DNA of 63,984 bases, filler included. It is 6 parts of 6 records of this genome, joined end to end, with 100 filler letters (N's around TTAATTAATTAA, not from the genome) between each part and the next. Parts side by side here need not be neighbours in the genome. Positions count along the whole stretch, not along the records: positions 13,890 to 26,409 come from SRR31147125_12398; 5 more parts are not named here. One strand, given 5' to 3'. The position numbers and the translations under genes are program-made. Shown here piece by piece: positions 3,554 to 32,980 of this stretch. The notes under the pieces were generated by a model. The model searched no databases. It had not been told where the DNA came from and was given only the letters and a program-made list of their open reading frames with translations. How positions within the stretch are numbered: position 1 is the stretch's first letter; the number at the start of each line of letters is the position of its first letter.

Positions 3554-3558
3554 AACAT

Positions 3559-7220: not shown

Positions 7221-7245
7221 TCAAAAATTAAAACGACGGCATACT

Positions 7246-9898: not shown

Positions 9899-9915
9899 CT
9901 ACTTCAAGGATAGCA

Positions 9916-10329: not shown

Positions 10330-11524
10330 GTGAGAAGACAATTCTCCACTGCCCTTTTGAAATTGCCGGGAACATGGCAAGAATCACCAAACATCTCAAA
10401 CGCAACGGTATCAATGCAACGAGTGTCAATTATTATGATTCATGGCTCCAGTATCAATGCGATACCAATCTACATATAAATCGGCACTCATCTGAAAAGC
10501 AGCAGGAAATAATCGCTCAATTTGCAGTCGAGGCCATTGAAAAATACGACATCTTCCATTTTCACTTTTCACACTCTCTTTATCCGGACTTTAGGGACCT
10601 TGAGGAGATCAAAAAAAGAGACAAAAATATTGTTTTCTCATTTTGGGGAAGTGACCAAAGAAGTCCGGAGTGGATTTTATACCAGCAAGCACGCTTTCTC
10701 GGTTATGCCCCCCTAAGCCTCATTTTATCACCTTAAACCAATATCATACCCATAAACTCATCAATCGATATGCCGATGTCATGCTGGGGACAACCTGTAT
10801 CCCGCGAGGCGTATTCATTCCGGGAATGGTCGATGCCCAAGAGTGGTGCATTGAAGAAAAGAATCGAATCATCGATAAAAATAAAATCACAAAAAAACCA
10901 GAAATCACATACTTTCTCCATGCACCGTCAAATAATTGGAAGAAAGGGTCTTCCATTATTCTGAATCTTTTTGATGAGCTAAAAACCGAAGGAGCCCCCA
11001 TTGAATTACTGCATGTCAATAAATTGCCCCCAAAAAAAGCCAAAGAAATTTATGCCTATGCCGACTATGCCATTGACCAAGTGGGTATCGGGACATTTGG
11101 CCTGTTTGGTTTAGAGATGATGTGCTGGGAAATTCCGGTGTTGGCCTATCATGTCCCCCTTTTTGACAAGATGAGAAACTATCCACCGGCTATACCAATC
11201 ACCAAAGAAAACTTTAAACGTCAAATGTTACGATGTATTGAGATGAAAAAAACAGAAGAGATAAAAACCCTTCAAAAACAATCACGTAATTGGATATTGA
11301 AAAATGCGGATATCTCTTCATCCATATCGCAATATATCCAAATATACCAAAATCTGGCAATCGGAAATTCGATCAAACAACATGCCAATAAATCATGGTA
11401 TGATCAAGAGTACAAACTACAGCAGGGGATCAAGTCGGATTTCTATAACTACATGATAGAACACAATGTATTTCAAAAGTTGAATCAACCCATTCCGGAA
11501 TATGACAAACGCCTTTACACTTGA
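10326..11524 (+). CDS. Glycosyltransferase-like protein (GT-B fold), frameshifted at C6 run 10708-10713
   Basis: YDIFHFHF...FWGSDQR in the first half; LHAPSNNWKKGS...ADYAIDQ...GLFGLEMMCWEIPV in the second. One extra C restores the frame. Confidence 0.75.
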
Positions 11525-11641
11525 ACGGCTGATGGATTAACTTAGGAACGAGAATCCGATATCACTTTCCGAACTTAAAAAAGAAATCACCTTCATTCAC
11601 CGATGGGGGACTTTCAATCATAAAAAGGTATCATCAATCAA

Positions 11642-13597
11642 ATGTGCGGCATTGCTGGTTTATATCATCTTTTGGGGAATAGTGTACCATCCCACTGCTT
11701 AAAATCAATGTGCAGTGCAATGCACCACCGTGGTCCTGAAGACGAAGGATATGTCTTTTTCAACATCCAAAACCCTCCTTTGAAAGACGAAAGCTACTGG
11801 GTGGAAAAAGGGTCGGAACTCCCCGAAACAACCAATCAAGAAGAGTGGAACGCGCTATTCAAATGGGGAGGGGACTTTAATCTTGCATTGGGGCATCGCC
11901 GTCTTTCCATCATCGATCTCTCCCCAGATGCCCATCAACCCATGTCAAACCGTGCCAATGGGATCTGGGTAACCTATAACGGTGAAATATATAACTACAA
12001 AGAGCTACGAAGCGAACTCCAAAGCAAAGGACATCGCTTCTTCTCGCAATCCGATACAGAAGTCATCATTCACCTTTATGAAGCGTATGGAGAAGATGCA
12101 TTGAGACTTTTAAACGGTATTTTCGCTTTTGCTTTATGGGACGGCAGAAACAATCGGTTACTCATTGCCAGAGACAGATATGGAGCAAAACCAATTTATT
12201 ACACCATGAAAAACGACACGCTCTGTTTTGCATCCGAAATAAAAGCGCTTCTACAAGTGGACGGCATCACCGCCAAGCTCAACAACAGAGCACTGGTCGA
12301 CTATTTTACCTTCCAAAACACCTATGGAGAGACAACCCTTTTTGACGACATTCACCTATTGAAACCGGGACATTTTCTTGTTGTTGAAAATGGGAAAATA
12401 AGAAAAAATCAATACTGGGATTTTGAATTTATCGACGAACAGGACAAAGGGGAAGCCCATTATATCGATCAAATCAAATCGATTTTTCCCCAAGTCATCA
12501 ACCGTCAAATGATTTCGGACGTTCCCGTCGGCAGTTATTTGAGCGGCGGTATGGACTCCGGCAGTATCACCGCCTATGCGTCTAAAAATATTCCCCGACT
12601 CATGACATTTACCGGTGGCTTTGATGTGGCAACAGCCGTAAGTATTGAAAACTTTTTTGATGAACGGGATAAGGCGGAATTGATGTCCCGAGCCTTCAAT
12701 ACCGAGCACTACCAAATGGTCATCCATGCCGGAGATCTGGAATGGGCGTTACCTCGTGTCATTTGGCATACCGAGGACTTACGCGTCGGGATGTCGTATC
12801 CACACTATTATTTGTCCCGCTTGGCGGGAAAATTTGTCAAAGTCGTATTGGCGGGAGCCGGAGGCGATGAAATATTGGCGGGATATCCATGGAGATACTC
12901 TCTTCTTGAAACATGCAATACGGATCGATCTTTTGAAAAAATACTTTATAAATATTGGTCCCGATTGATCAACGATGAAAATCGGACCCGGTTTTTCAAT
13001 GCTGAATTTTTTTCAAAAGTAAAAGATCACTCCCCTCTTGAGTCTATTCGAGAGGTTTTGTCAGGAAACACAAACAGCGGTTCCTATATCAAAAAAGCAC
13101 TCTATTTTGATGCCAAAACCTTTTTGCACGGTATTCTTGTAATCGAAGACAAGCTAAGCATGGCCCACTCCCTTGAATCCCGAGTGCCGTTTCTGGATAA
13201 TGAATTCGTTGATTTTGCCGTAAAAATTCCAACAAAATATCTACTCAACGCCTCATGGATACCAGATGCAACAAAAGACATTACCCTTTCCGGAAAATAC
13301 ATCTTCCGAAGAGCCATGGAAGACTATTTACCCCAAGAGATCATAAAAAACAGAAAACAAGGATTCAGTGCTCCAGATCAAACTTGGTACATGCAGAAAC
13401 TGGTTCGCTACATTAAAAGCATCATTCTTTCGGAAAGAGCGCTTTCACGGGGATACTTCAACCCAGTATTTCTGGAATCCATATTGGACGAACACATAAA
13501 AGGAAAACAGAATCATAGATTGTTGATATGGTCTCTGCTCAGCTTTGAATGGTGGAATCGGCTTTTTATCGACGGAGAATCCTATCCCTTATCTTGA
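11642..13597 (+). CDS. asnB: Asparagine synthase-like glutamine amidotransferase (probable uronate amidation)
   Basis: MCGIAG, HRGP, GHRRLSIIDL, NGEIYN, LSGGMDS, GAGGDE and ESRVPFLD motifs. Confidence 0.93.
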   Translation: MCGIAGLYHLLGNSVPSHCLKSMCSAMHHRGPEDEGYVFFNIQNPPLKDESYWVEKGSELPETTNQEEWNALFKWGGDFNLALGHRRLSIIDLSPDAHQPMSNRANGIWVTYNGEIYNYKELRSELQSKGHRFFSQSDTEVIIHLYEAYGEDALRLLNGIFAFALWDGRNNRLLIARDRYGAKPIYYTMKNDTLCFASEIKALLQVDGITAKLNNRALVDYFTFQNTYGETTLFDDIHLLKPGHFLVVENGKIRKNQYWDFEFIDEQDKGEAHYIDQIKSIFPQVINRQMISDVPVGSYLSGGMDSGSITAYASKNIPRLMTFTGGFDVATAVSIENFFDERDKAELMSRAFNTEHYQMVIHAGDLEWALPRVIWHTEDLRVGMSYPHYYLSRLAGKFVKVVLAGAGGDEILAGYPWRYSLLETCNTDRSFEKILYKYWSRLINDENRTRFFNAEFFSKVKDHSPLESIREVLSGNTNSGSYIKKALYFDAKTFLHGILVIEDKLSMAHSLESRVPFLDNEFVDFAVKIPTKYLLNASWIPDATKDITLSGKYIFRRAMEDYLPQEIIKNRKQGFSAPDQTWYMQKLVRYIKSIILSERALSRGYFNPVFLESILDEHIKGKQNHRLLIWSLLSFEWWNRLFIDGESYPLS

Positions 13598-13789
13598 AAG
13601 ACACATCCAACACGCGATCGGTCACAATGGACAAACATATTAAAAATATAGCAAAAAAATATAATCGCCAACTTGGCAGGAACTGCCTGATATTTTCACT
13701 TCAAAACAATCCTTACCCCCCCGTTCCCAACTTCAAAGAACATTCTCAAGAAATTACAGCCTCAGAGCCTCCCGCCTCAGCCTCCCCCC

Positions 13790-13889
13790 NNNNNNNNNNN
13801 NNNNNNNNNNNNNNNNNNNNNNNNNNNNNNNNNTTAATTAATTAANNNNNNNNNNNNNNNNNNNNNNNNNNNNNNNNNNNNNNNNNNNN
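13790..13889. other. Artificial contig spacer
   Basis: N-run with central TTAATTAATTAA; composition and gene content change abruptly across it. Confidence 0.98.
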
Positions 13890-14226
13890 GGCCTTCATAA
13901 GCAATAGAGGTAAACGCCTCATCCTCTTCGGTGACAAAGGTAGAGGCAATAACTGGAAAGTCGATATGTACTGTAGTCTCAGCACCCGGAATCTTATTAC
14001 CCAGAATCACTGCTCCCGGTGTGTGATGCTCGGTAGTGGTTCTACCGATCAGCGGAAAAGTGGTTGACTTACCGTGGGTAAGTGACTTGGACTGGTGCTT
14101 GCCGTCCATAACACAGAGTGTGTCACGGTATGCCATAACACCCGGCATGAATACATCTTTGAATAGCTCCATATCATCAGCTCCAAGGTTCTTGCTGCCG
14201 AGGTAGCTGATATTGAAATCTGTCAT
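13890..14226 (-). CDS. T7 gp10-like major capsid protein, N-terminal part (truncated by contig end)
   Basis: ELFKDVF...GKSTTFPLIGRT...TPG resembles T7 gp10 GKSAQFPVLGRT; follows the scaffold gene; RBS AGGAG. Confidence 0.85.
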
Positions 14227-14239
14227 AGTTTTCTCCTAT

Positions 14240-14282
14240 AAATAGAAAAGAGGCAGAACCGTGTATTCCGGTTCTGCCTCTT
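14240..14282 (-). terminator. Intrinsic terminator-like hairpin directly upstream of the capsid RBS
   Basis: Perfect 14-bp stem AAGAGGCAGAACCG/CGGTTCTGCCTCTT with a 7-nt loop, followed on the minus strand by TTCTATTT. Confidence 0.7.
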
Positions 14283-14320
14283 GCTTTGAAAATTTAAATA
14301 AATAAAACGTGTTTATGTTA

Positions 14321-15076
14321 TTACTGGAAGTTAATTTTGTTTGCTCTATTGTACCTGCTGGTACGAGCAACCTTCTCCATTGTCGCTTTCTTGAGTGCCG
14401 GATCATGACTCCGCTCTGCCTTGACATAAGCCGCAGACTGCTCCTGACGGGAGGCAAAGACATCACCACCTCCCGAACCACCTTTCATGCCGGTAATCAG
14501 ATTACCGCTTGTGCCATTTGCTGCTTCGTACATCTTCTGTACCTCCTGCATTGCGAGTTTACTCTGAGTCGGATTATCAAGAGTTATCATCTTCTCAAGG
14601 TCAGCCTTTCTCGACTGATCAAACCCCGGACTCTTCATAAACTCAACCAGATGATTCAGCTTATCCATACCACCGACCGATTCGGCAACATCATTCTTGA
14701 AACTCGTTACCTGCTGCTGTTCAGCCGTAACCACATTGTTACAGACCTGATCAATCACCTGACGGGGTAACCCCATCTGCTCAAACTTCTCGTAAGCATC
14801 TACGGGCAATTCACCCTTTTCATGCCACGCCGCAGAGAGAGTATCCATACTCAACCCTGCTGACTCTGCCACCTTCTCCATAGTCTCATTGGCTGGCTTC
14901 TCCTGAGGAGGCTGTTTATTTTCAGCTCCAGCTGGCGGCACCTGATTCTGCAACTGCTGCCCAACAGCTCCCTCCATACTATTACCGGCAGGCATATTAC
15001 CTGCTGGAATTTGATTCTGCACCGGTGTCTGCTGAGTCGCATCACCATTTATCTGATCCAATACCTGATTAGGCAT
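14321..15076 (-). CDS. T7 gp9-like capsid scaffolding protein
   Basis: Located between portal and capsid; GEL...YEKFEQMGLPRQVID...VGG and C-terminal FASRQE...DPA match the gp9 pattern. Confidence 0.8.
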   Translation of the reverse strand: MPNQVLDQINGDATQQTPVQNQIPAGNMPAGNSMEGAVGQQLQNQVPPAGAENKQPPQEKPANETMEKVAESAGLSMDTLSAAWHEKGELPVDAYEKFEQMGLPRQVIDQVCNNVVTAEQQQVTSFKNDVAESVGGMDKLNHLVEFMKSPGFDQSRKADLEKMITLDNPTQSKLAMQEVQKMYEAANGTSGNLITGMKGGSGGGDVFASRQEQSAAYVKAERSHDPALKKATMEKVARTSRYNRANKINFQ

Positions 15077-15105
15077 CTGTATTCTCCTTATCCTGAATTA
15101 CTTTT

Positions 15106-15498
15106 TTACTTGGCTTTTTTAGCACCTACAACAATATTCTTCTCCACCGCTGTCATAACCTTGAGCTTACGGGGAGATTTATCATTTTCTTTCTGATAGG
15201 TATACTCACGCTTGATAATATTCGCTCGCTCATCCCGGAGAGCATGCTGCTTCTCCAAGTCCATCTGCGCCTCAGTCTTGCTCTTATCAGACATCTCAGC
15301 CACCTGCTTCTGCAGACTTCTAATCGTCTCCTTATCCTCAGCGTTCTGCTGTGCCAGAGCATCCTCACGGGCGGCAAGTGTCTGTTCACGGTCACTCAGT
15401 TTCGTTTCCATATCCTGCATCTTAGCCCACATCTCAGCCATATCCGGCTGCTCTGCTGCTGTATCCTGTGTCTTTGTTGCTGTCTTAGCTGTTGCCAT
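15106..15498 (-). CDS. Phage coiled-coil protein of unknown function
   Basis: 130-aa Q/E/K-rich ORF with RBS, between portal and scaffold. Confidence 0.7.
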   Translation of the reverse strand: MATAKTATKTQDTAAEQPDMAEMWAKMQDMETKLSDREQTLAAREDALAQQNAEDKETIRSLQKQVAEMSDKSKTEAQMDLEKQHALRDERANIIKREYTYQKENDKSPRKLKVMTAVEKNIVVGAKKAK

Positions 15499-15544
15499 AT
15501 TATTTCCTTTATCAATATATAGTTTTAAAATTCATGCTTCATTA

Positions 15545-17197
15545 TTAAGCAGGCTGTGCTGCTGGTGCTGGAAGTTGTGGCTGTGCTGACGCACCCTGAC
15601 CACCCTGACCACCTTGAGGAATCATCTTCCCGATAAGTCCTGCTGCCGGCCCTGCCATTTTATTCATCATCTCCATCTCCTGAGCTTTCTGCATCTGTTC
15701 TTTTGCTTCTGCCTCCATCTGCTCATATTCCTCATCAGTAAGGAGGAAATCGTCATTCTCCAGCTGGAGAGCTGCTTGCATCATACGGAGAAGTTTGAGT
15801 GGTTTGATAAATTTGAGCATTGCATCCTTGCCGACCATCTTCTCACCCAGCTCAGCAAACTCGACAATCTTCTGCAAGTCCTGCCCTCTGCCGAGTGCTT
15901 CCAACCCGGTCACGATAGTAGTCTCGACCGTTCCCTCCGGCAGTCTATCAAGCTTCCCCAGAGCAATCATACGTTGTTCCAGCAGCCCGACCACCTGCGG
16001 CTGTAGCTCTGAGGCAAAGATTGCATAGACATTACCGATCTGCTCCTCCAGTGCCTGAATCATCATGCGAATTTCATACGAAGTAACCCGCTCACCCTTG
16101 CGCTGCACAGCGCTCCGCATCAGAAACGCCCGCTGCATCTTCTCTTCAAGAGCCGCAATCATCCTCTCAGCCACGCCGTAGTCAGCCCCTTTGTCAGCCC
16201 GGAGCATAGTCACGTCATTATGCAGATCACCGGGAATATACGACCCGTTCTTGGCTCTGACAAGATCACGCCGCTTGGTAGTGCCTCCCGGCTTGACTCC
16301 CATAATAGACAAGGACGCAATCTCTGCGCCCTCGGTTACCGCTCTCGTTAAAATATCAAGGACAATCAGCCCCCCGAGAATATCCTCGACATAGCCACGC
16401 CCCCAGTCCTCACCGTCAAGATGCGACCAACGAACCGGAACATACGGACACTTCTTAAACTTAGCCCATTTCCCGATCTTCTCCCTGCCGATACCATGCT
16501 CAGGCAAGACAACACCGTTGATCTCCTGCTTGACCGTCCAGAACTTGGTCTCACTGTCAAACTCAACGCTGGTATAGAGAGTCGCCTTTTTGTTGATATC
16601 TGTATCAGACTTATCATCTAGCAAACCACAATAAGCCAAGACCACATCATCAAGCATCGAGAGCAATAAATCCTCATTGATAATAACTTGCAGCAGCTCA
16701 CCTGCTGGAGTCCGACGCACAACATATCTATCCATACAGTAATACCGCAGGGGCTCGTCGGTCGGAGGAATATACATCAGCACATTACCACCGATTATCG
16801 AATGCTCACAGACCTTTCCCGTAATCACCCGCATCTTGATAGTCTCGCAGTACCGACGAATCTTTTTCTCACGCTCGGAGAGCATGACCTCGACCTTGGT
16901 CAGAGCGTCCTGATCGCTAGCGTTATCTCTGGCATCATCTGTCAGCACATAACGAAACCACGGACTCCCGACTGGAAAGAGGATAGTGTTGAGCCTGCTG
17001 GCAAAGTTATTGATACCCTCCGCCCCGGTTGTCTGGTACGGCACTGGATAGTCGGTACTCCCGTCAGCCCCTTCTGGAGGCATAGCGGTAGGCTTGGTCA
17101 AGACAGAACAGGCTCTTGCTCGGCGGAGAAACGGTTCACGTGAAGCTTTGAGTTTGATAAAATCCCTTGCAATATCGCCTTTATCACTCTTATTCAT
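15545..17197 (-). CDS. T7 gp8-like portal (head-to-tail connector) protein
   Basis: PYQTTGAEGINNFASRL, PWFR, CPYVPVRW..LDGEDWGRG, GERVTSYEIR and TGLEALGRGQDL motifs. Confidence 0.95.
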   Translation of the reverse strand: MNKSDKGDIARDFIKLKASREPFLRRARACSVLTKPTAMPPEGADGSTDYPVPYQTTGAEGINNFASRLNTILFPVGSPWFRYVLTDDARDNASDQDALTKVEVMLSEREKKIRRYCETIKMRVITGKVCEHSIIGGNVLMYIPPTDEPLRYYCMDRYVVRRTPAGELLQVIINEDLLLSMLDDVVLAYCGLLDDKSDTDINKKATLYTSVEFDSETKFWTVKQEINGVVLPEHGIGREKIGKWAKFKKCPYVPVRWSHLDGEDWGRGYVEDILGGLIVLDILTRAVTEGAEIASLSIMGVKPGGTTKRRDLVRAKNGSYIPGDLHNDVTMLRADKGADYGVAERMIAALEEKMQRAFLMRSAVQRKGERVTSYEIRMMIQALEEQIGNVYAIFASELQPQVVGLLEQRMIALGKLDRLPEGTVETTIVTGLEALGRGQDLQKIVEFAELGEKMVGKDAMLKFIKPLKLLRMMQAALQLENDDFLLTDEEYEQMEAEAKEQMQKAQEMEMMNKMAGPAAGLIGKMIPQGGQGGQGASAQPQLPAPAAQPA

Positions 17198-17206
17198 TGC
17201 CCCTCC

Positions 17207-17458
17207 TTAACTGAACAGGTTGAGACCTGTCTTCTTGGCTGTACCGCCAGTGCTGCCAGTACCGAGACCTAGAGGGTCGGATTTATCAATTCTGAGTGCA
17301 TCCTTACCTGACTTTTTCTTACTGTCATTATCATTGGTTACCAGATCGTCCTCCTCTTTCAGCTCAACTGCTTTCGCCGTCACAGGTGCTGGTGTCACTG
17401 GTGCTTGATAGATAGGAGCCGGTGTATCGCCGCCTCCACCTCCAAATAATCCGCACAT
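17207..17458 (-). CDS. T7 gp6.7-like small virion protein
   Basis: MC start, PAP motif and SGKDALRIDK resemble gp6.7; lies just upstream of the portal. Confidence 0.55.
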   Translation of the reverse strand: MCGLFGGGGGDTPAPIYQAPVTPAPVTAKAVELKEEDDLVTNDNDSKKKSGKDALRIDKSDPLGLGTGSTGGTAKKTGLNLFS

Positions 17459-17764
17459 TCACTCACCCTCCCCACTATACTTCGCCTTAAGTTCACCAAT
17501 CAGCTTCCGCCTACCGAGATATGCATAGAACTCCCACTCAGTCTCGCCAGTATGCCGCATACGCTCTGGATTATCCTTGTCAAGCTGCGCAACCAGCTCA
17601 CAGGCAAAATCCGGCATTTTATCCTCAGCAATCTCTGCCGGCGCTGTCTGCTCTGCCAGAAGAGTCTTCACCAGAGAACCGAGCTGATTCTCTACCGACT
17701 TCCCCAGCCCATCATTCTTGAGCTGACCCAGCGCATACTCAACAGCGCTTTGATTTTCGCTCAT
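17459..17764 (-). CDS. Phage hypothetical protein, first gene of the structural module
   Basis: 101-aa ORF with RBS AAGGAG; abuts the next gene. Confidence 0.7.
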   Translation of the reverse strand: MSENQSAVEYALGQLKNDGLGKSVENQLGSLVKTLLAEQTAPAEIAEDKMPDFACELVAQLDKDNPERMRHTGETEWEFYAYLGRRKLIGELKAKYSGEGE

Positions 17765-17815
17765 ATAATCTCCTTATCTAATACCTTTTATAAAAGACAA
17801 AACCGCTTCCGTCCT

Positions 17816-17861
17816 TCCCGTATTGAGCGGATAGACAAGTTGTACTATATTGAGCGGAATT
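17816..17861 (-). promoter_or_regulatory. Candidate phage-RNAP late promoter(s), tandem
   Basis: Minus-strand AATTCCGCTCAATATAG matches 13/17 positions of T7 AATACGACTCACTATAG. The core TCCGCTCAATA is repeated 27 bp downstream and followed by CGGGAAGG. Confidence 0.6.
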
Positions 17862-17911
17862 CATGAAACATTTGTTTTAATGAAAATTCATCAGTAATTT
17901 CACTAAAGGTA

Positions 17912-17939
17912 TTGACAAGTCAAAAGAAAAGGTTAATAT
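17912..17939 (+). promoter_or_regulatory. Candidate sigma70 promoter of the AT-rich cassette
   Basis: TTGACA-16nt-TAATAT. Confidence 0.5.
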
Positions 17940-18074
17940 GCATTAAATGATTTGATTTTTTAATTATATCTAAAGACTATAAATCCAAGTACCGATAAAC
18001 AATTATCGACACTTAGGTTATTTTTTTATGTGTGATAATTATATATAAATAAAATATAAAAATTTCGAAAAAAG

Positions 18075-18103
18075 TTGACTATTACAATAAAAGTTGATAT
18101 TAT
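18075..18103 (+). promoter_or_regulatory. Candidate sigma70 promoter of the AT-rich cassette
   Basis: TTGACT-17nt-TATTAT with a TGn extended -10. Confidence 0.6.
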
Positions 18104-18201
18104 AAATTTATTACTTGTTTCTAAAAAAGTCATTCTTATACACAATAAATAAGTAGAAGAAGATTTACACGAGATACCATTCGTGTATTGGAGATATAAA
18201 T

Positions 18202-18420
18202 ATGCTAGAGTCACTTAAAAACAGAATCCTAGAAAGAAGAAATTTGCCTGAAACTCATGCTCAAAAACCAATTTTTGAGATGTTATCTTCTCTCAGTTCA
18301 AGACCTAAATTCATCTCAAAATCTCCAATTATTGGAAGAGGGAACATCTTCTGTAAAAATCATACTATTTCTGAAGAGCAAGTAAATTCTGACTTTGCTA
18401 AAGCAGCAAAAGGCTTTTAA
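18202..18420 (+). CDS. Small basic hypothetical protein (72 aa), cassette gene 1
   Basis: RBS GGAG upstream; contains PIIGRGN...TISEEQVNSDF. Confidence 0.7.
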   Translation: MLESLKNRILERRNLPETHAQKPIFEMLSSLSSRPKFISKSPIIGRGNIFCKNHTISEEQVNSDFAKAAKGF

Positions 18421-18444
18421 TGCAGGCAAAGGCAACATATAGTA

Positions 18445-19151
18445 ATGGATATTGAAAACGATAAAGATAAAAAGGAATTTTTAAGTTTTACTCAGATGAA
18501 TTTTTTCCCATCTATTCTAAGCTTTCAGCAAACGCCGAGCTAAGTCAAAAAACACTTGAAGAAATTTCTGCTGCTTTTAGTCTTATTGCTGATTATGAAT
18601 TCTACAAATCTAAACCTGTTACAGAGTGCTTTGCATTAAAAATAAATGCTTATGAATATGGGATATCATGTCTTAAGCTAGCTTCTGCACATATGTTGAA
18701 ATACATTGTTATTCCTAAAATAACACTTGCAAAACAATACCTAAAACCAATCTATTCAAAATATTCAAACAAATCAAATAAAGCGCCTAAAGAAGCAAAA
18801 GAACTAATTAAATTATATCCAATTATCAAAAAATATCTTACTAATGAAGAACATTTATTGAAGGAATTAGAGAGCAAAACAAAAAAAGATAATAAAGAGG
18901 AAACAGATTATATTGAGATCAATAAACTAATAGAAAAAAGATACAAAAACATCTTGCATTTAAATAAATCATGTAATATATTTATTAATAGTTATTACTA
19001 TAATCCAGAATCAAAGTATTTATTTAAATTTCCACGTTTACTAAAAAGATTTAAACAAAAACTTAACAATCATACTAAGATTGAATGTATCATAGGAACT
19101 ATAGGGGGGTTAATAATAAGCTTTATTTTTCATTATTACTCAACACGATAA
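18445..19151 (+). CDS. Membrane-anchored helical protein, degenerate paralogue of the next gene; frameshift in T-runs near 18478-18489
   Basis: The frame of ORF 18693-19151 is open back to 18471 and ATG 18445 is one base out of frame. C-terminal hydrophobic helix IECIIGTIGGLIISFIFHYY. Confidence 0.65.
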
Positions 19152-19193
19152 CCTTTAAAATAATCTTAGCTCTCAATATGAAATGCAACTCAA

Positions 19194-19826
19194 ATGAATG
19201 AAATAGATAATTTCGAGAAAGTATATGAATTACATAATACAATAAAACTTGTAATAGATGAAGTACATGAAACTCTAAACTACCTGCCTCGTGAATGCCT
19301 TACAGAAATTCATTCTTGTCTATCACATTTAGCTAGACACCACAATGATCCTAAAAGCGATTCAGAAAAGCAAGCAAGTAAAAAAGCTGGCTCTCACCTC
19401 AAAAGATGTGCTTATGATCTTTATAAGATCATAAGCAGAGATACCATTGATAAGTTTAAACAACTTGAAAATAATGACATACAATATATTCTATCTGAAA
19501 GTAAATTTAACGAATTTCGAAAATTAAAAGACTCCATTATCAATAAAACTATTATTGCAAGAAAAGAAGAAGGACGTAGTTCTGAAAATTGGAAAAAAGC
19601 ATTTGATAAATGGGATGAAGTATTTATTGATTGCCAAAAAGCCAGAAATAATTATTTTACCAACAAAGAACTAAACAATAAAATGGACTTCGTTGATTCC
19701 ACTGAAAAACTAATCTTCAAAAAAAATTCTTGGGTAAATATAATAATAAGCCTAATAATAACAGTTATCACTGGTGCTGTTGTATATTTTTTTGGAACTA
19801 CAATAATAAAAATCATCACCCCATAA
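19194..19826 (+). CDS. Membrane-anchored helical protein with ExxxxxxHxxR and HxxRxxxD motifs
   Basis: TEIHSCLSHLAR and SHLKRCAYDLYK; C-terminal TM helix WVNIIISLIITVITGAVVYFFG. Confidence 0.8.
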   Translation: MNEIDNFEKVYELHNTIKLVIDEVHETLNYLPRECLTEIHSCLSHLARHHNDPKSDSEKQASKKAGSHLKRCAYDLYKIISRDTIDKFKQLENNDIQYILSESKFNEFRKLKDSIINKTIIARKEEGRSSENWKKAFDKWDEVFIDCQKARNNYFTNKELNNKMDFVDSTEKLIFKKNSWVNIIISLIITVITGAVVYFFGTTIIKIITP

Positions 19827-19847
19827 ACCAATAAACACAATAAATTA

Positions 19848-22562
19848 TCAACTAAAGATATACTCCGACTCCAACGCCTGCCGGACATCCAACTCACCCA
19901 TCTCTGGAACTTCCGGCAGCAGCATCCGTTGAGCCTCAGTCAAAGACTTAGAAACGTAATTCCTTAATTCTGTCAACTGGCAGGTACTGTATATCCTCAC
20001 AAACTCCTCCCTGAGAACCTTTGCCAGCAAGCCCGATCTGCTCGGTAATGTGCCGTAACTGTCATGAATCAGGCTGAGTGGCGCATTCCCCATCCGCAGA
20101 ACCACCATCCAGAGCATAGCAGCATCAAAAGAATGGGTGTAATTGGCTGCCATACCGGAGCGGATTTTCTTCTTATTGACCCGTCCGGTATCGGCGGTAA
20201 AGCTGGTCTGGATACGGTGAGAACCGACCACGGTATTTATCCGCATTACCTCGGTACACTCCTTCCGGTGCTGCACAGGAAAACCGAGCGGAGTCTGCCA
20301 CTCCATTCCCGAAACCCCAGTCTTACAAAAACAGCTCAACCGCCGTTCCTTCCGCTGGGATTCGGTCTTGAACTCACAGATACACCGGCAGAGCGATTGC
20401 CCGCATTTCTCACACCGTGAACACTTCGGTCTGATCGTCACCACGTCAGCGACATCCTTGAGCCAGTCGAGATAAACAAAAGCACCCGGAATAATGCTCA
20501 GAGTCGCCCGGTGGACAATCGGCTCAAGAAACATACTAGCCCGCCAACGCAAATCCTCAGTCAAGCAGTATTCAGCTCCCAACTTCTCAATATTCTTGAC
20601 AATAGCATCAGATATCTGCTCCTTACGGGTAAAACTACTGACATCATAGGTACAGGTCATTACTGGTCTCTTGGTCATACTCCGGTCGATCTGCCCGGCA
20701 AGCAGTCTGGAAAAGAGTGTCTGTTCAACCTTATTCCTCATCTCTGTCCAGTACTTGGTATCCTTCTCGTTCTTGTCGGAAATCCGCTTCCCGATCTCCG
20801 CCTCCAACTCTATAAGGTCTGCCGTATTCATGTCAGAATACAGCCCCAGTTTATCCGCGCTCTCCACCCAGTGAGCCAGCTCTTCATTCGCCCTGTCAGC
20901 AATATCCTGATAGAGATCATGGAGTCCAGGACTCTCCGCATCGTTGACAACCGAAGTCCTGACCGCAAGGTCTCTGTCCTTGAGCATCCCTGCTACATGC
21001 TGCAACGCATTCTGACAGCCATCCTGAGGTATACTAATATGACAGATATGCTCCTCACCGTTCTCCAACGCTCCAGCGACCTCGAAGCAGAACGCCAAAA
21101 ACTGCCACGGTTTATCTGCACCTGTCCAGAAATTCCGGTTCTCACTCCGGTACGGGTCTGCCGCACACTCTGCCATAATTGCTGCATGCTCCTCCGCCCA
21201 GACAATCCGTTCCTCCCGGCTGACCTTATCAATCCCGTAGACACTCGCCGCACCGTACAGCAGCCAGTCAATCCCCTCCGAGCTACCAAGGGGCTCGCCG
21301 TGAGCAAACTCCAGCATAGCCTTACTGATATCATCACCTTGAGGAGAGAGAAAGCGACCGCCATAGACCGGATATCCCTGACCTCTGGTGTCGACTGCGT
21401 ACCCGAAGTACAGCTCATCCTCATAATAATACTTCTCAGCCGTGGTGAGAACTCCCTGTAAATGGCTATAACGTGAGATCATTTCACTACGAAGCTTCTG
21501 CGCCTGCTGGAATGCTGCAGTATTGGGTGAGAGCTTACGCAGACTCGGCAGTTCAGCAGTATCGATAATCGGCAACGCCCATTTCTTACCACCACCAAGA
21601 CGGGTACACTCTTTGACGACCTCGCAAAGATTCTGATTGACCCTCCACGCCGTCCTCTGCGCCCTGTTGACCGCCGCAAACATCTGCGGATACTCTCCCT
21701 TCCGTTCCTCCATCTGCCGCAAATACGACCTATTCCACGACCTGATAAAACGGGTACGCTTGCGCAGCTCCGCTGTCTGGTAGACCCCTCCGGAAATACC
21801 CTTCCAGTCTACCGGCGGTACGATACTCGGTGGATACTGCGGTGCAAAGAGTGAGCGCAGCTCCTCCCGGCGGTTTGATTCTTCCATAAATTCTAGTGTG
21901 ATCTGCAGCCGGTGTGAAGTATGTCTCTTCGAGGCTGGCTTGAATGGTATGCGTTCAATCCACTTCGCAGAAACCTGACTCGCCATATGCAGCAGCATCA
22001 GCCCTGCCTTGACCTTCTCTTTATAGGAGAGAGTCTGCGGATTTATCTGGTCTTTGTACCAGCGTTCAAGGAATGATTTCTTGACCTTCTTCTTCTGGAA
22101 CTCACTCGGCGCACGTCTCATTCGCCGTTCCATTGCTTCAAAAGCCCCAGACTCATACTCCTTGAGAGAGTTGGCGTTGAACTGGTCGAGCAGATCGTCA
22201 CCAAGCATATTTGCACGCTTGGCGAGATTGTCCCCAGCGAGAGCGCCGTCGATAAGATTTTTGGCTGTGATAAAGGCTGTGATGTCGGCAGGCAGCTGAG
22301 CGATAAAACGGGTACAGAGCGCCAACCTCCCCGTTCTGTGCCTTTCAATCTCTGCCAGAATCCGTTCATGGAGAGGAGTAACTATCGAATAGATAAAGTC
22401 ACGCCCTGTACCTGTATTGCTGCCGTGTCCGTTCTTCTTGAGTCGCCGCAGATTACTGAAATACTCCAGCTGAGTCACCCCTATCGCTTCCAGCTCCAGC
22501 TCCCGCTGACGACTATATTTCTCTGCCCCGGTCTCCTGAGCAGTCAGTACTTCTGTTGTCAT
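19848..22562 (-). CDS. T7-like single-subunit DNA-directed RNA polymerase
   Basis: PPVDW, SPQGDDISKAML, YGIDKVS..ER, ADKPWQFLAFCFE; motif A DGCQNALQH, motif B RSMTKRPVMT, WQTPLGFPV, motif C IHDSYGT; C-terminal YIFS. Confidence 0.97.
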   Translation of the reverse strand: MTTEVLTAQETGAEKYSRQRELELEAIGVTQLEYFSNLRRLKKNGHGSNTGTGRDFIYSIVTPLHERILAEIERHRTGRLALCTRFIAQLPADITAFITAKNLIDGALAGDNLAKRANMLGDDLLDQFNANSLKEYESGAFEAMERRMRRAPSEFQKKKVKKSFLERWYKDQINPQTLSYKEKVKAGLMLLHMASQVSAKWIERIPFKPASKRHTSHRLQITLEFMEESNRREELRSLFAPQYPPSIVPPVDWKGISGGVYQTAELRKRTRFIRSWNRSYLRQMEERKGEYPQMFAAVNRAQRTAWRVNQNLCEVVKECTRLGGGKKWALPIIDTAELPSLRKLSPNTAAFQQAQKLRSEMISRYSHLQGVLTTAEKYYYEDELYFGYAVDTRGQGYPVYGGRFLSPQGDDISKAMLEFAHGEPLGSSEGIDWLLYGAASVYGIDKVSREERIVWAEEHAAIMAECAADPYRSENRNFWTGADKPWQFLAFCFEVAGALENGEEHICHISIPQDGCQNALQHVAGMLKDRDLAVRTSVVNDAESPGLHDLYQDIADRANEELAHWVESADKLGLYSDMNTADLIELEAEIGKRISDKNEKDTKYWTEMRNKVEQTLFSRLLAGQIDRSMTKRPVMTCTYDVSSFTRKEQISDAIVKNIEKLGAEYCLTEDLRWRASMFLEPIVHRATLSIIPGAFVYLDWLKDVADVVTIRPKCSRCEKCGQSLCRCICEFKTESQRKERRLSCFCKTGVSGMEWQTPLGFPVQHRKECTEVMRINTVVGSHRIQTSFTADTGRVNKKKIRSGMAANYTHSFDAAMLWMVVLRMGNAPLSLIHDSYGTLPSRSGLLAKVLREEFVRIYSTCQLTELRNYVSKSLTEAQRMLLPEVPEMGELDVRQALESEYIFS

Positions 22563-22599
22563 AGTTCCTCCTAAGTGAAGTTTGAAAAACTATGACTTA

Positions 22600-22620
22600 T
22601 CCCCTATATACTACGTATTA
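22600..22620 (-). promoter_or_regulatory. T7-promoter-like sequence upstream of the RNAP gene
   Basis: TAATACGTAGTATATAGGGGA versus T7 TAATACGACTCACTATAGGGAG; about 40 nt upstream of the RNAP start. Confidence 0.4.
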
Positions 22621-22624
22621 CTGC

Positions 22625-22918
22625 TTACTTCCTGTACAACTCAAAATCATTGACCTTTTCTGGATACATCAACAATTCTGCAAGTTCTTCTGTGGTATAC
22701 GAAGCATTACTGAAACGATCACTGCGATACCAGTGAATACATTTTTCATTATCTATCATTTTCGGTCTGTAACATTCTGCAGAAGAACTCGACAATAAAA
22801 CAACCCTACCTATACCACAAGTCTTACAGGTTATTTCAAGCCACTTGCGAATATCCTCCTTTGTCTCCTGCCTTACTTCCCAGTACTTTTCCACTGTATT
22901 AACAATTGGTTTTTCCAT
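22625..22918 (-). CDS. Phage hypothetical protein (CxxC)
   Basis: MEKPIV... start with RBS AAGGA; CKTC motif. Confidence 0.6.
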   Translation of the reverse strand: MEKPIVNTVEKYWEVRQETKEDIRKWLEITCKTCGIGRVVLLSSSSAECYRPKMIDNEKCIHWYRSDRFSNASYTTEELAELLMYPEKVNDFELYRK

Positions 22919-22946
22919 TTTAACTATCCTTATTAAATAAATTTTA

Positions 22947-23219
22947 TTAATCTTCTTGCTCGGGACGTATAAACTTCTCAATATCCTCTTTATCCAGTTT
23001 TTCCCAGTTAGTGATCTGCCCAGTATCAACATCAATATCCAGCTCAACATAATCCCCGTAATGCTCTCCCGGCATGATATCAGGAACATACCCATCATAA
23101 TCTTTCAACAACTCACCATCAGCATCATATAACTTACAGTAGAACTCATCACGCACTTTCAATAAAATTGAGAGCTTTTTAGCATTTACCTTAACTGTCT
23201 TTGTTGTATCTATTTCCAT
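22947..23219 (-). CDS. Conserved phage hypothetical protein
   Basis: GYVPDIMPGEHYGDYVELDIDVDTGQITNW, a pattern recognisable from small phage proteins; function unknown. Confidence 0.7.
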   Translation of the reverse strand: MEIDTTKTVKVNAKKLSILLKVRDEFYCKLYDADGELLKDYDGYVPDIMPGEHYGDYVELDIDVDTGQITNWEKLDKEDIEKFIRPEQED

Positions 23220-23238
23220 AATTATTAACCTTTCAAAA

Positions 23239-23478
23239 CTATTTATCATTTATCTGCCAGAAAAGTCTGTCAGCTTTCGCCTCCAGCTGTTCAAGATTCA
23301 TCGCTGCGACCAAAGCAGGTTTGCCTCTTGCACAATTTATCAAATGCCTGAACTGCTTAATCAGTCTTAACGATTTTGCCTTATGTTCCTTACTCACTAA
23401 ATCCTGTTGACAAAAACAATCAACCTGATTAGCATAATCATAAAGCGCATTTTTCAACACAAGTACAGTCTGATTCAT
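23239..23478 (-). CDS. Phage hypothetical protein
   Basis: ORF starting MNQTVLV, tightly packed with its neighbours. Confidence 0.5.
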   Translation of the reverse strand: MNQTVLVLKNALYDYANQVDCFCQQDLVSKEHKAKSLRLIKQFRHLINCARGKPALVAAMNLEQLEAKADRLFWQINDK

Positions 23479-23626
23479 CTTTATTCCACTCCTCAAGCGC
23501 TTCCTCCAGCGTCTCATGTTCTGCTGTCTTCCGACCACATACCGGGCAGAAAACAGTCAAAATCTTCTTTTTATAATTTGCCTTAACTTTCGCTGGCAGA
23601 CCACAACAACGCTTACTCTCACTCAT
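23438..23626 (-). CDS. Lar-like restriction-alleviation zinc-finger protein
   Basis: KRCCG...FCPVCG..T.....EEALEEWN pattern typical of the Lar family. Confidence 0.6.
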   Translation of the reverse strand: MSESKRCCGLPAKVKANYKKKILTVFCPVCGRKTAEHETLEEALEEWNKDESDCTCVEKCAL

Positions 23627-23642
23627 ATCAAAACCTTTAATA

Positions 23643-23702
23643 TAAAACAGAACTACACCGGGCTGGATGATTGGTTGTTTGTTAAACCCGGTGCAGCTCT
23701 GT
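23643..23702 (-). terminator. Long intergenic hairpin (terminator or RNase III-type processing site)
   Basis: 16-bp stem ACAGAGCTGCACCGGG/CCCGGTGTAGTTCTGT; both mismatches are G-U pairs only on the minus-strand RNA; followed by TTTA. Confidence 0.6.
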
Positions 23703-23710
23703 ACGGGAAA

Positions 23711-24133
23711 TCATCGTCCACTGCTGCCAAACCCACTCACGCCACGCTCCGACTCGCCCAGCTCATACACAGAAATCAAACGTGCCGGTTCATGTTTTGT
23801 AATAATCATCTGCGCCACTCTGTCACCCTGCTTAATTCTGTAAGGCAGTAATCTTGAGTTATAAAGAATAGCCATGACCTGCCCCCGGTAATCAGAGTCG
23901 ACAGTACCGACATGCGCAAAAATACCTTTCTTACCTGCCAGCCCGGAACGCCCTTTGATCTCAGCGTAATACCCTTCCTCCAGCTCAATCGCAAACCCCA
24001 GCGGAATTACTGCTCTCATAAATGGCAAAACCCACATGCTCTTTACCGCATAACAATCATGCCCCGCATCACTCTCATGCGCCTGAGTCGGACGTTTGCC
24101 GTTTTTAAATAATTTCAATTTCAGTGTTTTCAT
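23711..24133 (-). CDS. dut: Trimeric dUTPase
   Basis: DAGHD, GRSGLA, GTVDSDYRG, RVAQ and RGVSGFGSSG (motifs 1-5). Confidence 0.95.
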   Translation of the reverse strand: MKTLKLKLFKNGKRPTQAHESDAGHDCYAVKSMWVLPFMRAVIPLGFAIELEEGYYAEIKGRSGLAGKKGIFAHVGTVDSDYRGQVMAILYNSRLLPYRIKQGDRVAQMIITKHEPARLISVYELGESERGVSGFGSSGR

Positions 24134-24135
24134 TA

Positions 24136-24345
24136 TTACCACGTATTATCCTCTATAATTAAATATTCTTCTCTACACTTTTCACATACAATATAATTAC
24201 CTGCATCGTTAAATTTTGATTCGTTGCCCTTATTACCACAGTCAGGACAATCCCAAAGATAAGTACTCCTGTTCCATAACATCACCTTTACATCTACTTT
24301 ATTAATAGTCTTAGGAGCATTACTATTTGCCATATTAAAGTGCAT
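24136..24345 (-). CDS. Small zinc-ribbon protein
   Basis: WDCPDCG...VCEKC. Confidence 0.6.
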   Translation of the reverse strand: MHFNMANSNAPKTINKVDVKVMLWNRSTYLWDCPDCGNKGNESKFNDAGNYIVCEKCREEYLIIEDNTW

Positions 24346-24649
24346 TTACGATCCCTCTCATATCCTCTAAACCATTCTTATACACTTTGCTCAACTTATA
24401 TATATGATTCCCTTGACTCTCTCCGAGCTTCTCAAATTCTCTTAAATAGACATCCTCAAGTCTTCTTGCATACTCTTCAAACGACCGTGAATATATCCCC
24501 TCAAGCTTCTCTGAATACTCTTCGAAATCCGAAGCTAATGGAGGCGGAGGATTACTCATTCTGCAATCAGGACAAACACTTCCTCCATTAATCAGAGCAG
24601 CCACCAGCACCCTCCTCAAGCCTGTACCATCCTTTACCATTGCCGACAA
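24335..24649 (-). CDS. Phage hypothetical protein (start uncertain)
   Basis: ORF fills the gap between co-oriented neighbours. Confidence 0.45.
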   Translation of the reverse strand: MSAMVKDGTGLRRVLVAALINGGSVCPDCRMSNPPPPLASDFEEYSEKLEGIYSRSFEEYARRLEDVYLREFEKLGESQGNHIYKLSKVYKNGLEDMRGIVNAL

Positions 24650-25109
24650 TCACCTTTTCTTCAACCAGCTTATCAAAAGCCTCAGAAGCAAAACAATTGT
24701 TATACAGATAATCATAAGGAATATTTTCAATCGCTTTTAAAAGCTGTGCTTTGCGATAACTCTTCCCTGCTTTCAGCCCCTGCTCTTCAAAAAGTTCTAT
24801 AACAGAATACTTCTTATCTTCTGCGGCAAACCCCTTTGGAGTATCAGCAGTATTATCAACCTGCTCCGGCTCTGCGGCTCTCTTGACCGAACCCTCCAGC
24901 AGTATCGGTTCACTGATCCCAGATTCTTTCAGCTTGCTATTAGCTTCCTCCAGCCTGTCAGCTTCTGCTCTCAAAGTATGTATCTGCGAATTGTTTCCCA
25001 GCTCCCTCAGATTAGCGTCAGTCCTGATCTTATCAACAAGCTCAACCAGCTGCTCGTCAGTCATATAATCCAGTGAGTCACATATTTCTTTAAATCTTTC
25101 CTGTCTCAT
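24588..25109 (-). CDS. Phage hypothetical protein (coiled coil plus possible winged-helix C-terminus)
   Basis: 173-aa ORF with RBS; ends FDKLVEEKVIVGNGKGWYRL. Confidence 0.65.
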   Translation of the reverse strand: MRQERFKEICDSLDYMTDEQLVELVDKIRTDANLRELGNNSQIHTLRAEADRLEEANSKLKESGISEPILLEGSVKRAAEPEQVDNTADTPKGFAAEDKKYSVIELFEEQGLKAGKSYRKAQLLKAIENIPYDYLYNNCFASEAFDKLVEEKVIVGNGKGWYRLEEGAGGCSD

Positions 25110-25126
25110 CTATCAAATCCTTTATC

Positions 25127-25195
25127 TTAAATCATCCCTAATAGCCATAGGACAATTACTGTCAATATGAATGCATCAACAATATGTATTTTCAA
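25127..25195 (-). CDS. Putative 22-aa hydrophobic micropeptide
   Basis: AGGAGG 7 nt before TTG; (M)KIHIVDAFILTVIVLWLLGMI*. Confidence 0.5.
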   Translation of the reverse strand: MKIHIVDAFILTVIVLWLLGMI

Positions 25196-25280
25196 AACAA
25201 ATCCTCCTTATACAATTTCTTCATCAGCAATCTCAAAGTAATACAGCAGAAGAATCAGTACCCTTTATGCTCAGCAATTA

Positions 25281-25660
25281 TTACAGTTCCTCCAGTATTA
25301 CCTCAACCTTGCCACCCTCAACAACCTCGCACATTGTCGCATCGATATGTTTGATCTGGCTATCATCAACATAAAACTCAGCTTTCATCATCGCATCGAG
25401 CAGACACTTAAAAACATTGTCGAGATCTCGCTTACCATTCTTTGGCGGATACAAGTGAATTTTGTTTTGATTGTCCCTGTCAGTGGCAACTCGACCTTAT
25501 TCTCCTGCGGTGTCACCTTATACTTGATAGCCTCCAGCTTGACCGCCTTGCGGTACTGCATTACCTTTGACTTAAGAAACATTCCACCGCTCTTACTTCG
25601 ACCGTAATAGTTATTGACACTCAGCGGATACGGCAATGTCAGTTTTAATACTTTACTCAA
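25281..25660 (-). CDS. rusA: RusA-family Holliday junction resolvase, frameshifted near 25460
   Basis: N-terminus LPYPLSVNNYY; the alternative frame continues IHLYPPKNGKRDLDNVFKCLLDAM...DDSQI...GKVEV, the RusA catalytic motif. Confidence 0.88.
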
Positions 25661-25672
25661 TTTATCTCCTTA

Positions 25673-25888
25673 CTAATTATCAAACATACTTCCAAAAGGT
25701 GAACCGGTCGACATAAAGTTAAAAGTAGCGATATCCTCAGCTACACCCCCAATCGGCTCTGCCCTGCCTGTTTCTCGCCTTATACTGGGAGAATCTTCTG
25801 ACCGACCATAAACTGCTGCAGACTCTGACTCAGGCTGCTTGGCTATTATCGGCGCTCTATAGACACTTGCTGGCAGTACACCACACAT
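25673..25888 (-). CDS. Phage hypothetical protein
   Basis: 71-aa ORF packed between neighbours. Confidence 0.5.
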   Translation of the reverse strand: MCGVLPASVYRAPIIAKQPESESAAVYGRSEDSPSIRRETGRAEPIGGVAEDIATFNFMSTGSPFGSMFDN

Positions 25889-26143
25889 TTAATTATCCTC
25901 CTCAAACTCAAGATCATCTTCATTCAACATATTCTCAGCCGTAACCGCAGCATTACCGAGCTTCTTAACCAATTCCTCAGTAACCGTCTGCAGCATAATA
26001 ACAGCACCAACAATCCTCAAACTGTCATAGGTAGCCTTGTCAGCTTTTTTTGTTAAGTAAATAGTGACCTTACCACCACCAAGCTCTGCAGTAAGATATT
26101 CAACAAATTCTTTCTTATCTGTGTTTTCCTGTTCATCGCTCAT
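25889..26143 (-). CDS. Phage hypothetical protein, acidic C-terminus
   Basis: 84-aa ORF, co-oriented and abutting the next gene. Confidence 0.6.
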   Translation of the reverse strand: MSDEQENTDKKEFVEYLTAELGGGKVTIYLTKKADKATYDSLRIVGAVIMLQTVTEELVKKLGNAAVTAENMLNEDDLEFEEDN

Positions 26144-26409
26144 AATCTTTTCTTTCTATAATTAATTTTACTCTCAGACTTCTTGCGAAGTCCTCGACTT
26201 CCCTTTGGAAAAGTGAAGCCAAACACAGTCAACGTTTTGACTGCGTGGCTGCAGAAGCAGCCTTTGACTTCCGTCATAAAATATTCCCAATCTGCTTCAT
26301 TCCACCACCGGCAAGCTGCTTACCTCTTTCGTGTATCCCTTCAAGGCTCACCCGTGGTACTTCCTGCTGCTCACTCAAAATTTGGTACGCCTCAACAAAC
26401 GCCTTGCGG

Positions 26410-26509
26410 NNNNNNNNNNNNNNNNNNNNNNNNNNNNNNNNNNNNNNNNNNNNTTAATTAATTAANNNNNNNNNNNNNNNNNNNNNNNNNNNNNNNNNNN
26501 NNNNNNNNN
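26410..26509. other. Artificial contig spacer
   Basis: N-run with TTAATTAATTAA. Confidence 0.98.
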
Positions 26510-32880: not shown

Positions 32881-32980
32881 NNNNNNNNNNNNNNNNNNNN
32901 NNNNNNNNNNNNNNNNNNNNNNNNTTAATTAATTAANNNNNNNNNNNNNNNNNNNNNNNNNNNNNNNNNNNNNNNNNNNN
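32881..32980. other. Artificial contig spacer
   Basis: N-run with TTAATTAATTAA. Confidence 0.98.

Follow-up and report, generated by a model that had tools for sequence, protein, structure and literature searches.

For a transcription enzyme that works as one self-sufficient chain, T7-type RNA polymerases are the textbook case, and biotechnology uses them as a workhorse. Why, then, should one of them carry eight cysteines packed into a short segment of its fingers subdomain, and what might they do there? The question is raised by a gene at positions 19848..22562 (minus strand) of a 63,984-nucleotide stretch of DNA, hereafter the window. The gene encodes a 904-residue single-subunit RNA polymerase (RNAP; P0001), within which alignment to homologues delimits a 37-residue insert (residues 711–747; 20322..20432, minus strand) that contains the eight cysteines and 11 Lys or Arg against 4 Asp or Glu residues. 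We find that the insert is conserved throughout one rare lineage of T7-type polymerases, and we favour its being a metal-chelating module that may help the enzyme to hold DNA.

An eight-cysteine insert in an intact T7-type RNA polymerase

We characterized the polymerase by its domains, predicted structure and catalytic residues. P0001 matched the Pfam families RNA_pol (PF00940; expectation value (E) 1e-72, 245.9 bits against a cut-off of 22) and RPOL_N (PF14700; E 1.1e-9, 38.6 bits against a cut-off of 30.1), and its best relatives of solved structure in HMMER searches were T7 RNAP chains (E about 7e-72). An AlphaFold2 (AF2) model of the full-length protein, built from a 104-row alignment, had a mean predicted local distance difference test (pLDDT) score of 91.4 and showed the right-hand fold with an N-terminal domain and a specificity hairpin; Foldseek ranked T7 RNAP elongation complexes as its best matches (template modelling scores of 0.75–0.85, E 5e-43 to 1e-39). 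Equivalents of T7 residues D537, R627, K631, Y639, H811 and D812 are all present and are invariant in the 104 aligned sequences. From the Pfam domains, the match to the T7 fold and the catalytic residues, we conclude that the gene encodes an intact T7-type single-subunit RNAP with an intact catalytic core; every family-defining feature that we tested was present. The specificity β-hairpin spans residues 768–795 (20178..20261, minus strand; AF2 strands 768–779 and 782–795), where R774, N776, R783 and Q785 correspond to T7 R746, N748, R756 and Q758 in the HMMER alignment to T7. The closest named phage enzyme is only 28.3% identical to P0001, and the 2732 INPHARED records that matched were all below 60% identity.

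Translation and alignment confirmed the original prediction, made from the letters of the window alone, that an eight-cysteine insertion interrupts a single-subunit phage RNAP, with two corrections of detail. The insert starts at 20322, as had been predicted, but ends at 20432, one base before the end first given (20433). It follows DVADVVTI (residues 703–710), again as predicted, but its peptide (RPKCSRCEKCGQSLCRCICEFKTESQRKERRLSCFCK, residues 711–747) does not join GMEWQTPLGFPV directly, as four residues, TGVS, intervene. The cysteines (C714, C717, C720, C725, C727, C729, C744 and C746) represent 8 of the 19 in the protein. At the 1.27% cysteine rate of the rest of P0001, the probability of finding at least eight in 37 residues is 1.9e-8, and the chance of such a cluster across all 37-residue segments of the protein is about 1.6e-5.

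The insert begins with a putative N-terminal ligand cluster, C714-x2-C717-x2-C720-x4-C725-x-C727-x-C729 (20376..20423, minus strand), in which G721, directly after the third ligand, is invariant across the insert-bearing proteins described below. Between the sixth and seventh ligands lies a basic helix, residues 734–743 (ESQRKERRLS; 20334..20363, minus strand; assigned by DSSP on the AF2 model), and the C-terminal ligand pair, C744-x-C746 (20325..20333, minus strand), comes 13–14 residues after the sixth ligand and is invariant in all of these proteins. The helical stretch is rich in Lys and Arg in every one of them, and the net charge of the 40-residue insert segment ranges from +4 to +10 in all nine. 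Within the full-length AF2 model, the insert had pLDDT scores of 78, 81, 81 and 65 in successive blocks of ten residues, whereas folding the insert alone (49 residues, nine-row alignment) gave a mean of 48.3, with helix 734–743 reappearing at low confidence. Scores of 65–81 in context against 48 in isolation agree with packing of the module onto the body of the polymerase.

In T7 RNAP (1CEZ, 1QLN, 1MSW and 1S76), the family, fold, catalytic and O-helix residues and the four specificity-loop contact residues R/N/R/Q are shared with P0001, at only about 22–24% identity over the Foldseek alignments. The corresponding T7 loop is K-rich, has 26 residues fewer, contains only one cysteine (C723) and lacks a ligand set. 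To our knowledge, T7 RNAP needs no zinc.

The insert recurs in one rare lineage

We asked how widely the insert is distributed. A word-indexed search of 5.8 billion proteins returned seven relatives (P0002–P0008) at 39–65% identity, followed by a next match at 29%. When 1.84 billion cluster representatives were searched exhaustively with HMMER, only P0004 (1319 bits) and P0122 (768 bits) among the 6455 matches exceeded 331 bits. A W-x-T-P-x-G-F type motif was located in 253 of 266 stored proteins (the other 13, with no pattern match, were dropped); the 60 residues before it contained seven or eight cysteines in nine proteins and between zero and four in the other 244. In an alignment (A2) of the nine members of the insert-bearing group and 95 homologues from outside it, the columns that were gapped in at least 90% of the outsiders yet filled in all nine members were exactly those of residues 711–747. 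The two conserved Trp anchors that flank the site are 55–58 residues apart in the nine group members, compared with 14–33 residues in the 217 outside proteins with both anchors (17 in 210 of them); one apparent spacing of 63 outside the group proved to be a false anchor. The same spacing in T7 RNAP is 29 in the HMMER alignment. No sampled homologue outside the group contained the insert.

Addition of cluster members and genome loci gave 19 sequences with 14 distinct inserts. The pattern [C/H]-x2-C-x2-C-x4-C-x-C-x-C-x13/14-C-x-C is kept in all 14, at overall identities to P0001 of 39–65%. Seven ligand cysteines are invariant, and the eighth position, which is the first in order, exchanges only with His (Cys in 9 of 14, His in 5 of 14) and always lies three residues ahead of the next Cys. 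Among four DNA sequences the Cys codons alternate between TGT and TGC while the residue is kept, and such synonymous changes at kept cysteines indicate purifying selection. In a FastTree phylogeny of 104 rows, the nine insert-bearing rows were separated from all others by a branch of length 1.01 (Shimodaira–Hasegawa-like support of 100), with His-first and Cys-first sequences as two sub-branches; all five His-first sequences belong to one of these. Judged by sequence, the insert-bearing proteins form one long-branched, rare group of T7-type RNAPs, for which the simplest history is a single gain followed by purifying selection on the eight ligand positions.

These data also address whether the insert is real. 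The original prediction had called for alignment with related polymerases and had cautioned that close homologues might lack the cysteine spacing, or that the segment might stem from compensating sequencing frameshifts. Alignment showed that the insertion recurs in a single lineage, in all nine group members and as 14 distinct inserts, every one of which conserves the spacing. An artefact, in which compensating frameshifts or misassembly would have generated a Cys-rich stretch by chance, is excluded: the 14 distinct sequences come from independent assemblies, including three complete chromosomes from metagenome-assembled genomes (MAGs), codons differ synonymously at the Cys positions, and the chance probability of the cluster is as low as given above.

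Two further collections yielded no additional members. In a scan of IMG/VR, none of the best 80 of 215 relatives exceeded 30% identity. Among JGI metagenome contigs, the pattern CG[KQ]xxC[KRA]C[EI]C occurred in 241 stretches, of which four passed tblastn and none was a true match. The two that we inspected (L112 and L114) are not RNAPs, as the matching open reading frames (ORFs) overlap longer ORFs on the opposite strand; that in L114 is, by eye, class-I aminoacyl-tRNA-synthetase-like (HMGH and KMSKS motifs). The other two (L113 and L115) have match lengths and identities equal to those of the L112/L114 pair.

Alignment A2 revealed two more group-specific insertions in the fingers, residues 574–580 and 607–621 (20700..20843, minus strand), which are gapped in at least 90% of non-group homologues and helical in the AF2 model. 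They lengthen a helical hairpin of the fingers subdomain.

The cysteines are candidate zinc ligands

The proposal that the insert cysteines serve as metal ligands is supported by their conservation, with seven invariant positions and an eighth that is Cys or His at the same place. Sets of Cys/His ligands with conserved spacing and Cys/His exchange, as expected of a zinc family, were found at the eight positions in all 14 distinct inserts. Exchange of Cys for His at a fixed spacing is the usual behaviour of zinc ligands. Zinc is the probable metal, as indicated by the Cys/His exchange together with the C-x-C pairs and the Gly that invariably follows the third ligand, and the number of ligands suggests that they may form either two tetrahedral sites or a small thiolate cluster.

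We compared the insert with known metal-binding modules. The ferredoxin-type 4Fe-4S motif is C-x2-C-x2-C-x3-C-P; the insert instead has x4 after the third Cys, then R, K or A and never P, and is His-first in 5 of 14 sequences. Its spacing also differs throughout from that of the Gal4-type Zn2Cys6 binuclear cluster, C-x2-C-x6-C-x5-12-C-x2-C-x6-8-C. Metallothionein-like, CXC and pre-SET zinc–thiolate modules have dense C-x-C-x-C and C-x2-C arrangements and more ligands than one tetrahedral site, and no sequence match between the insert and these families was found by Pfam or a Protein Data Bank (PDB) profile search. The zinc-binding domain of the bacterial RNAP β′ subunit is a short Cys4 module with C-x-C and C-x2-C pairs on a nucleic-acid-facing surface; it belongs to an unrelated polymerase family and has four ligands against eight here, such that the analogy is functional only, and we know of no sequence similarity between it and the insert. 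A word search for the module in proteins of 30–496 residues gave two candidates, neither of them at E ≤ 10, and protein atlas features for the insert scored 0.78, below lead level, and retrieved RNAP fragments only. By these comparisons, which are of sequence, the module belongs to no described zinc or iron–sulfur (Fe–S) family.

A possible grip on downstream DNA

We next located the insert relative to T7 RNAP. In the HMMER alignment, residues 710–715 of P0001 correspond to T7 708–713, after which the alignment breaks and resumes with residue 752 at T7 724. The insert therefore replaces T7 residues ~711–724, part of the fingers loop that runs from the W698 helix to W727. In the available portions of PMC11617373 and PMC5524818, T7 K711, K713 and K714 are described as a downstream-DNA patch that is important for promoter opening; the portion of PMC5524818 also reports that R720–A724 make non-bonded contacts in the T7 RNAP–lysozyme complex 1ARO. 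The few other homologues with a long loop at this site, P0200 and T7 itself, are also K-rich there. The specificity hairpin starts ~20 residues after the insert, which means that the original placement of the insert next to the specificity loop holds only along the sequence, the insert itself being outside the loop. Across the nine group members, the equivalents of R746/N748/R756/Q758 vary (R/N/R/Q, R/Y/K/S, Q/Y/K/T, E/K/N/C and others), whereas the ligands stay fixed.

The T7-equivalent position, the basic charge and the combination of a varying specificity loop with fixed ligands favour a grip on downstream DNA over promoter reading. We put at roughly 50% the probability that the insert is a metal-chelating mini-domain, most likely with two zinc ions, that lets the polymerase hold the downstream duplex more extensively and without regard to sequence. 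The insertion, its position and single origin, the invariant ligands with their Cys/His exchange, the positive charge and the intact catalytic core are observed; that the module binds metal, that this metal is zinc and that the module contacts DNA we infer. By this mechanism, a module gained once in one T7-type RNAP lineage would have enlarged the fingers-subdomain loop that in T7 carries the K711/K713/K714 patch. Its eight ligands (Cys8, or Cys7His in one sub-branch) would hold two zinc ions, and the metal sites would stiffen the knuckle and display the conserved K/R-rich helix. The basic module would grip the downstream duplex irrespective of sequence, aiding promoter opening and holding the elongation complex, and would read no promoter bases.

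Several observations weigh against this explanation. The loop is short (anchor spacing of 17) and without the K patch in 210 of 217 homologues, so DNA contact at the insert site is not general in the family, and we infer the DNA-contact role from positional equivalence to T7 and from two secondary sources. The 50-residue insert piece matched no Pfam family, zinc or Fe–S, at E ≤ 10; the PDB profile search returned only C2H2 fingers at E about 6, over a generic C-x2-C-G-K knuckle; and the start of the insert, C-x2-C-x2-C, recalls Fe–S motifs too. Nor did promoters offer help: we found no convincing repeated motif in the phage piece of the window or in the relatives' loci L001, L002 and L004, and a search for the T7 promoter core with up to three mismatches gave 5 matches against 3.1 expected.

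We considered what else such a module might do. Zinc knuckles are often only braces, and a purely structural brace of the fingers, without contact to a ligand or nucleic acid, would fit with an insert for which a confident model is obtained only when the full-length protein is folded; the further fingers insertions at 574–580 and 607–621 might need such support. A brace leaves the conserved charge of +4 to +10 and the K/R-rich helix unexplained, however, and we consider it unlikely, if the least unlikely of the alternatives. The next in order, and also doubtful, is that a phage or host regulator docks on the module, at the surface that lysozyme touches in T7 RNAP; the original prediction had likewise raised the binding of a regulator. 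Residues R720–A724, which contact lysozyme in 1ARO according to the available portion of PMC5524818, lie in the replaced segment, and tight control of the RNAP is a necessity for a temperate phage. Against docking, no partner was identified (the examined parts of the loci, which did not extend to the lysis regions, contained no lysozyme or amidase), and so strong a positive charge is more typically a mark of surfaces that bind nucleic acid.

Only marginally more doubtful is redox sensing, which the original prediction had mentioned too: the module would be an Fe–S cluster or a redox-labile zinc–thiolate sensor that ties the late transcription of a temperate phage to the redox or iron state of its host. 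Eight closely spaced thiols beginning with C-x2-C-x2-C invite this interpretation, as does the gene's place at the switch point that precedes the virion genes of prophages bearing an integrase and a repressor, and Fe–S clusters occur in other nucleic-acid enzymes. The spacing of x4 after the third Cys and the lack of Pro are unlike the ferredoxin motif, however; His as the first ligand in 5 of 14 sequences is more usual for zinc; eight ligands in 33 residues with C-x-C-x-C suit zinc–thiolate knuckles or clusters better than one cubane; and no Fe–S family was matched in Pfam. To the same slight degree we entertain a built-in switch, in which the Cys8 or Cys7His module, placed on a fingers loop that faces the DNA, would form a redox- or metal-labile cluster (Fe–S or oxidizable zinc–thiolate) through which the state of the host would gate the RNAP and with it the virion genes of a temperate lambdoid/T7 hybrid phage. 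If true, the T7 RNAP family, otherwise free of cofactors, would thereby gain its first member under cofactor control. We rank lowest among the functional proposals the leading idea of the original prediction, that the module extends promoter recognition through extra base contacts or by repositioning the specificity loop. It draws on the proximity of the insert to the specificity hairpin, ~20 residues ahead in sequence, but the replaced T7 loop is described, in the available source text, as a contact to downstream DNA and not to promoter bases. The ligands and the basic helix are constant while the specificity-loop contacts diverge within the group, and no promoter motif was found with which co-variation could be assessed.

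Our literature search, outside which most subscription journals fell, found no description of a Cys-rich or metal-binding insert in a single-subunit RNAP. If the preferred reading of a metal–thiolate, DNA-facing module is true, it would reveal a new means by which promoter opening, processivity or regulation is tuned on this scaffold, and would offer an engineering handle, for example for metal- or redox-controlled transcription. The insert is a surprising elaboration of a textbook enzyme, though a rare one with a function that we have deduced.

The relatives are temperate phages with T7-like virion genes

Insert-bearing relatives are present in three Planctomycetota MAG chromosomes. One of these, of 3.9 Mb (G001), contains three full-length insert-bearing RNAP genes (G001:C1 173726-176428 (L119), 2060384-2063026 (L116) and 2321607-2324300 (L120)), one of them Cys-first at 64% identity to P0001 and the other two His-first, which suggests three related prophages. 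On its early side, the locus of the 64% relative (L121:4411-17973 and L122:370-15249) encodes a tyrosine integrase, a CI-like repressor, RecT/exonuclease, a DnaD/O-like loader and a resolvase; after the RNAP come portal, scaffold, capsid, tail tube A/B and internal virion proteins. In another relative (L001), the RNAP is preceded by Ant, Gam, Sak4, SSB, RusA, helicase and primase.

Autographiviridae are usually described as strictly lytic, with their own T7-type DNA polymerase (available text of PMC10134795). Of the T7-type portal, scaffold, capsid and tail tube genes near the RNAP that characterize Autographiviridae-like phages, the window piece has portal, scaffold and the start of the capsid gene, and the relatives also have tail tube A/B and internal virion proteins. 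The strictly lytic description does not suit the relatives, which encode an integrase and a CI-like repressor and in whose examined stretches no T7-type DNA polymerase was seen. We conclude that the relatives are temperate phages that combine lambdoid early genes with T7-like virion genes, with the RNAP at the early/late boundary, and that the insert marks a rare group of temperate phages that is undescribed in the literature searched.

A single-subunit RNAP in a phage with temperate features has been reported for Pseudomonas phage LUZ100 (PMC10134795, available text). The LUZ100 enzyme aligns over 99% of P0001, and RNAPs of Rhizobium and Agrobacterium prophages are also among the matches of P0001. 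All of these are only 26–29% identical to P0001, however, and none has the insert. The insert group further differs from these phages and prophages in that its early genes are of lambdoid type (CI-like repressor, RecT/exonuclease, DnaD/O-like loader and RusA) and that its examined stretches showed no T7-type DNA polymerase.

Each relative has cargo of its own directly behind the RNAP gene, at what appears to be a conserved moron slot. In G001 it contains an antisense ORF (L122:3068-3814, minus strand) of 26% GC that is unlike the cargo in the window; in L001 (12738-13605) it contains two DNA methyltransferase fragments; and in L002 (about 13000-15700) it is AT-rich, with 30-nucleotide tandem repeats at 15354-15651. 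Elsewhere in L001, 14 copies of an 18-nucleotide tandem repeat (978-1375) lie inside an ORF (850-1554; phrog_5070/7964, unknown function).

The phage piece and the remainder of the window

Five identical linker blocks, N44-TTAATTAATTAA-N44, divide the window (13790-13889, 26410-26509, 32881-32980, 38527-38626 and 55519-55618). The block is presumably a six-frame-stop spacer, as is commonly used to join contigs into a pseudomolecule. With six contig pieces linked in this way, the window is such a pseudomolecule, and which genes lie side by side across a linker carries no meaning. We rejected the notion of a decayed prophage remnant inside a chromosome, as the flanking N blocks are contig linkers.

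The linker-bounded piece that bears the RNAP (13890..26409, 12,520 bases, RNAP on the minus strand) carries, in minus-strand order by PHROG and Pfam matches, a RusA-like fragment, dUTPase, small ORFs, the RNAP, an AT-rich opposite-strand block, a phrog_1391 protein, a portal (phrog_449, E 1e-127), a scaffold (phrog_1052) and the start of a capsid gene. Its GC content is 46.6% without the AT-rich block, with 52% in the RNAP gene, compared with 35–42% for the other five pieces, which carry housekeeping genes. The host of the phage piece is therefore known only by binning and is uncertain. The CTP synthase and serine hydroxymethyltransferase of the window are only 56–57% identical to those of the three Planctomycetota genomes, and the other pieces are therefore not from a close relative of those Planctomycetota.

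The AT-rich block (17991-19847; 27% GC against 47% in the rest of the piece) lies between the RNAP and the portal module and looks like recently acquired cargo. Its ORFs (18202-18420, 18693-19151 and 19194-19826) are on the strand opposite to the RNAP. The last of them matches phrog_9168, of unknown function, and PADLOC gave only weak matches to the cargo ORFs (E 3e-4 and 4e-3). Near the two ends of the block are 32-nucleotide stretches that are 72% identical (18137-18168 and 19832-19863). A perfect 14-bp inverted repeat with a 7-nucleotide loop (14248-14282), between the scaffold and capsid genes, resembles a terminator or RNA-processing hairpin. On a separate contig piece, a sugar-modification gene cluster (1628-13597) encodes epimerases, a DegT-type aminotransferase, ATP-grasp and radical SAM/SPASM proteins, a WbmS-like deacetylase, a formyltransferase and an asparagine synthase.

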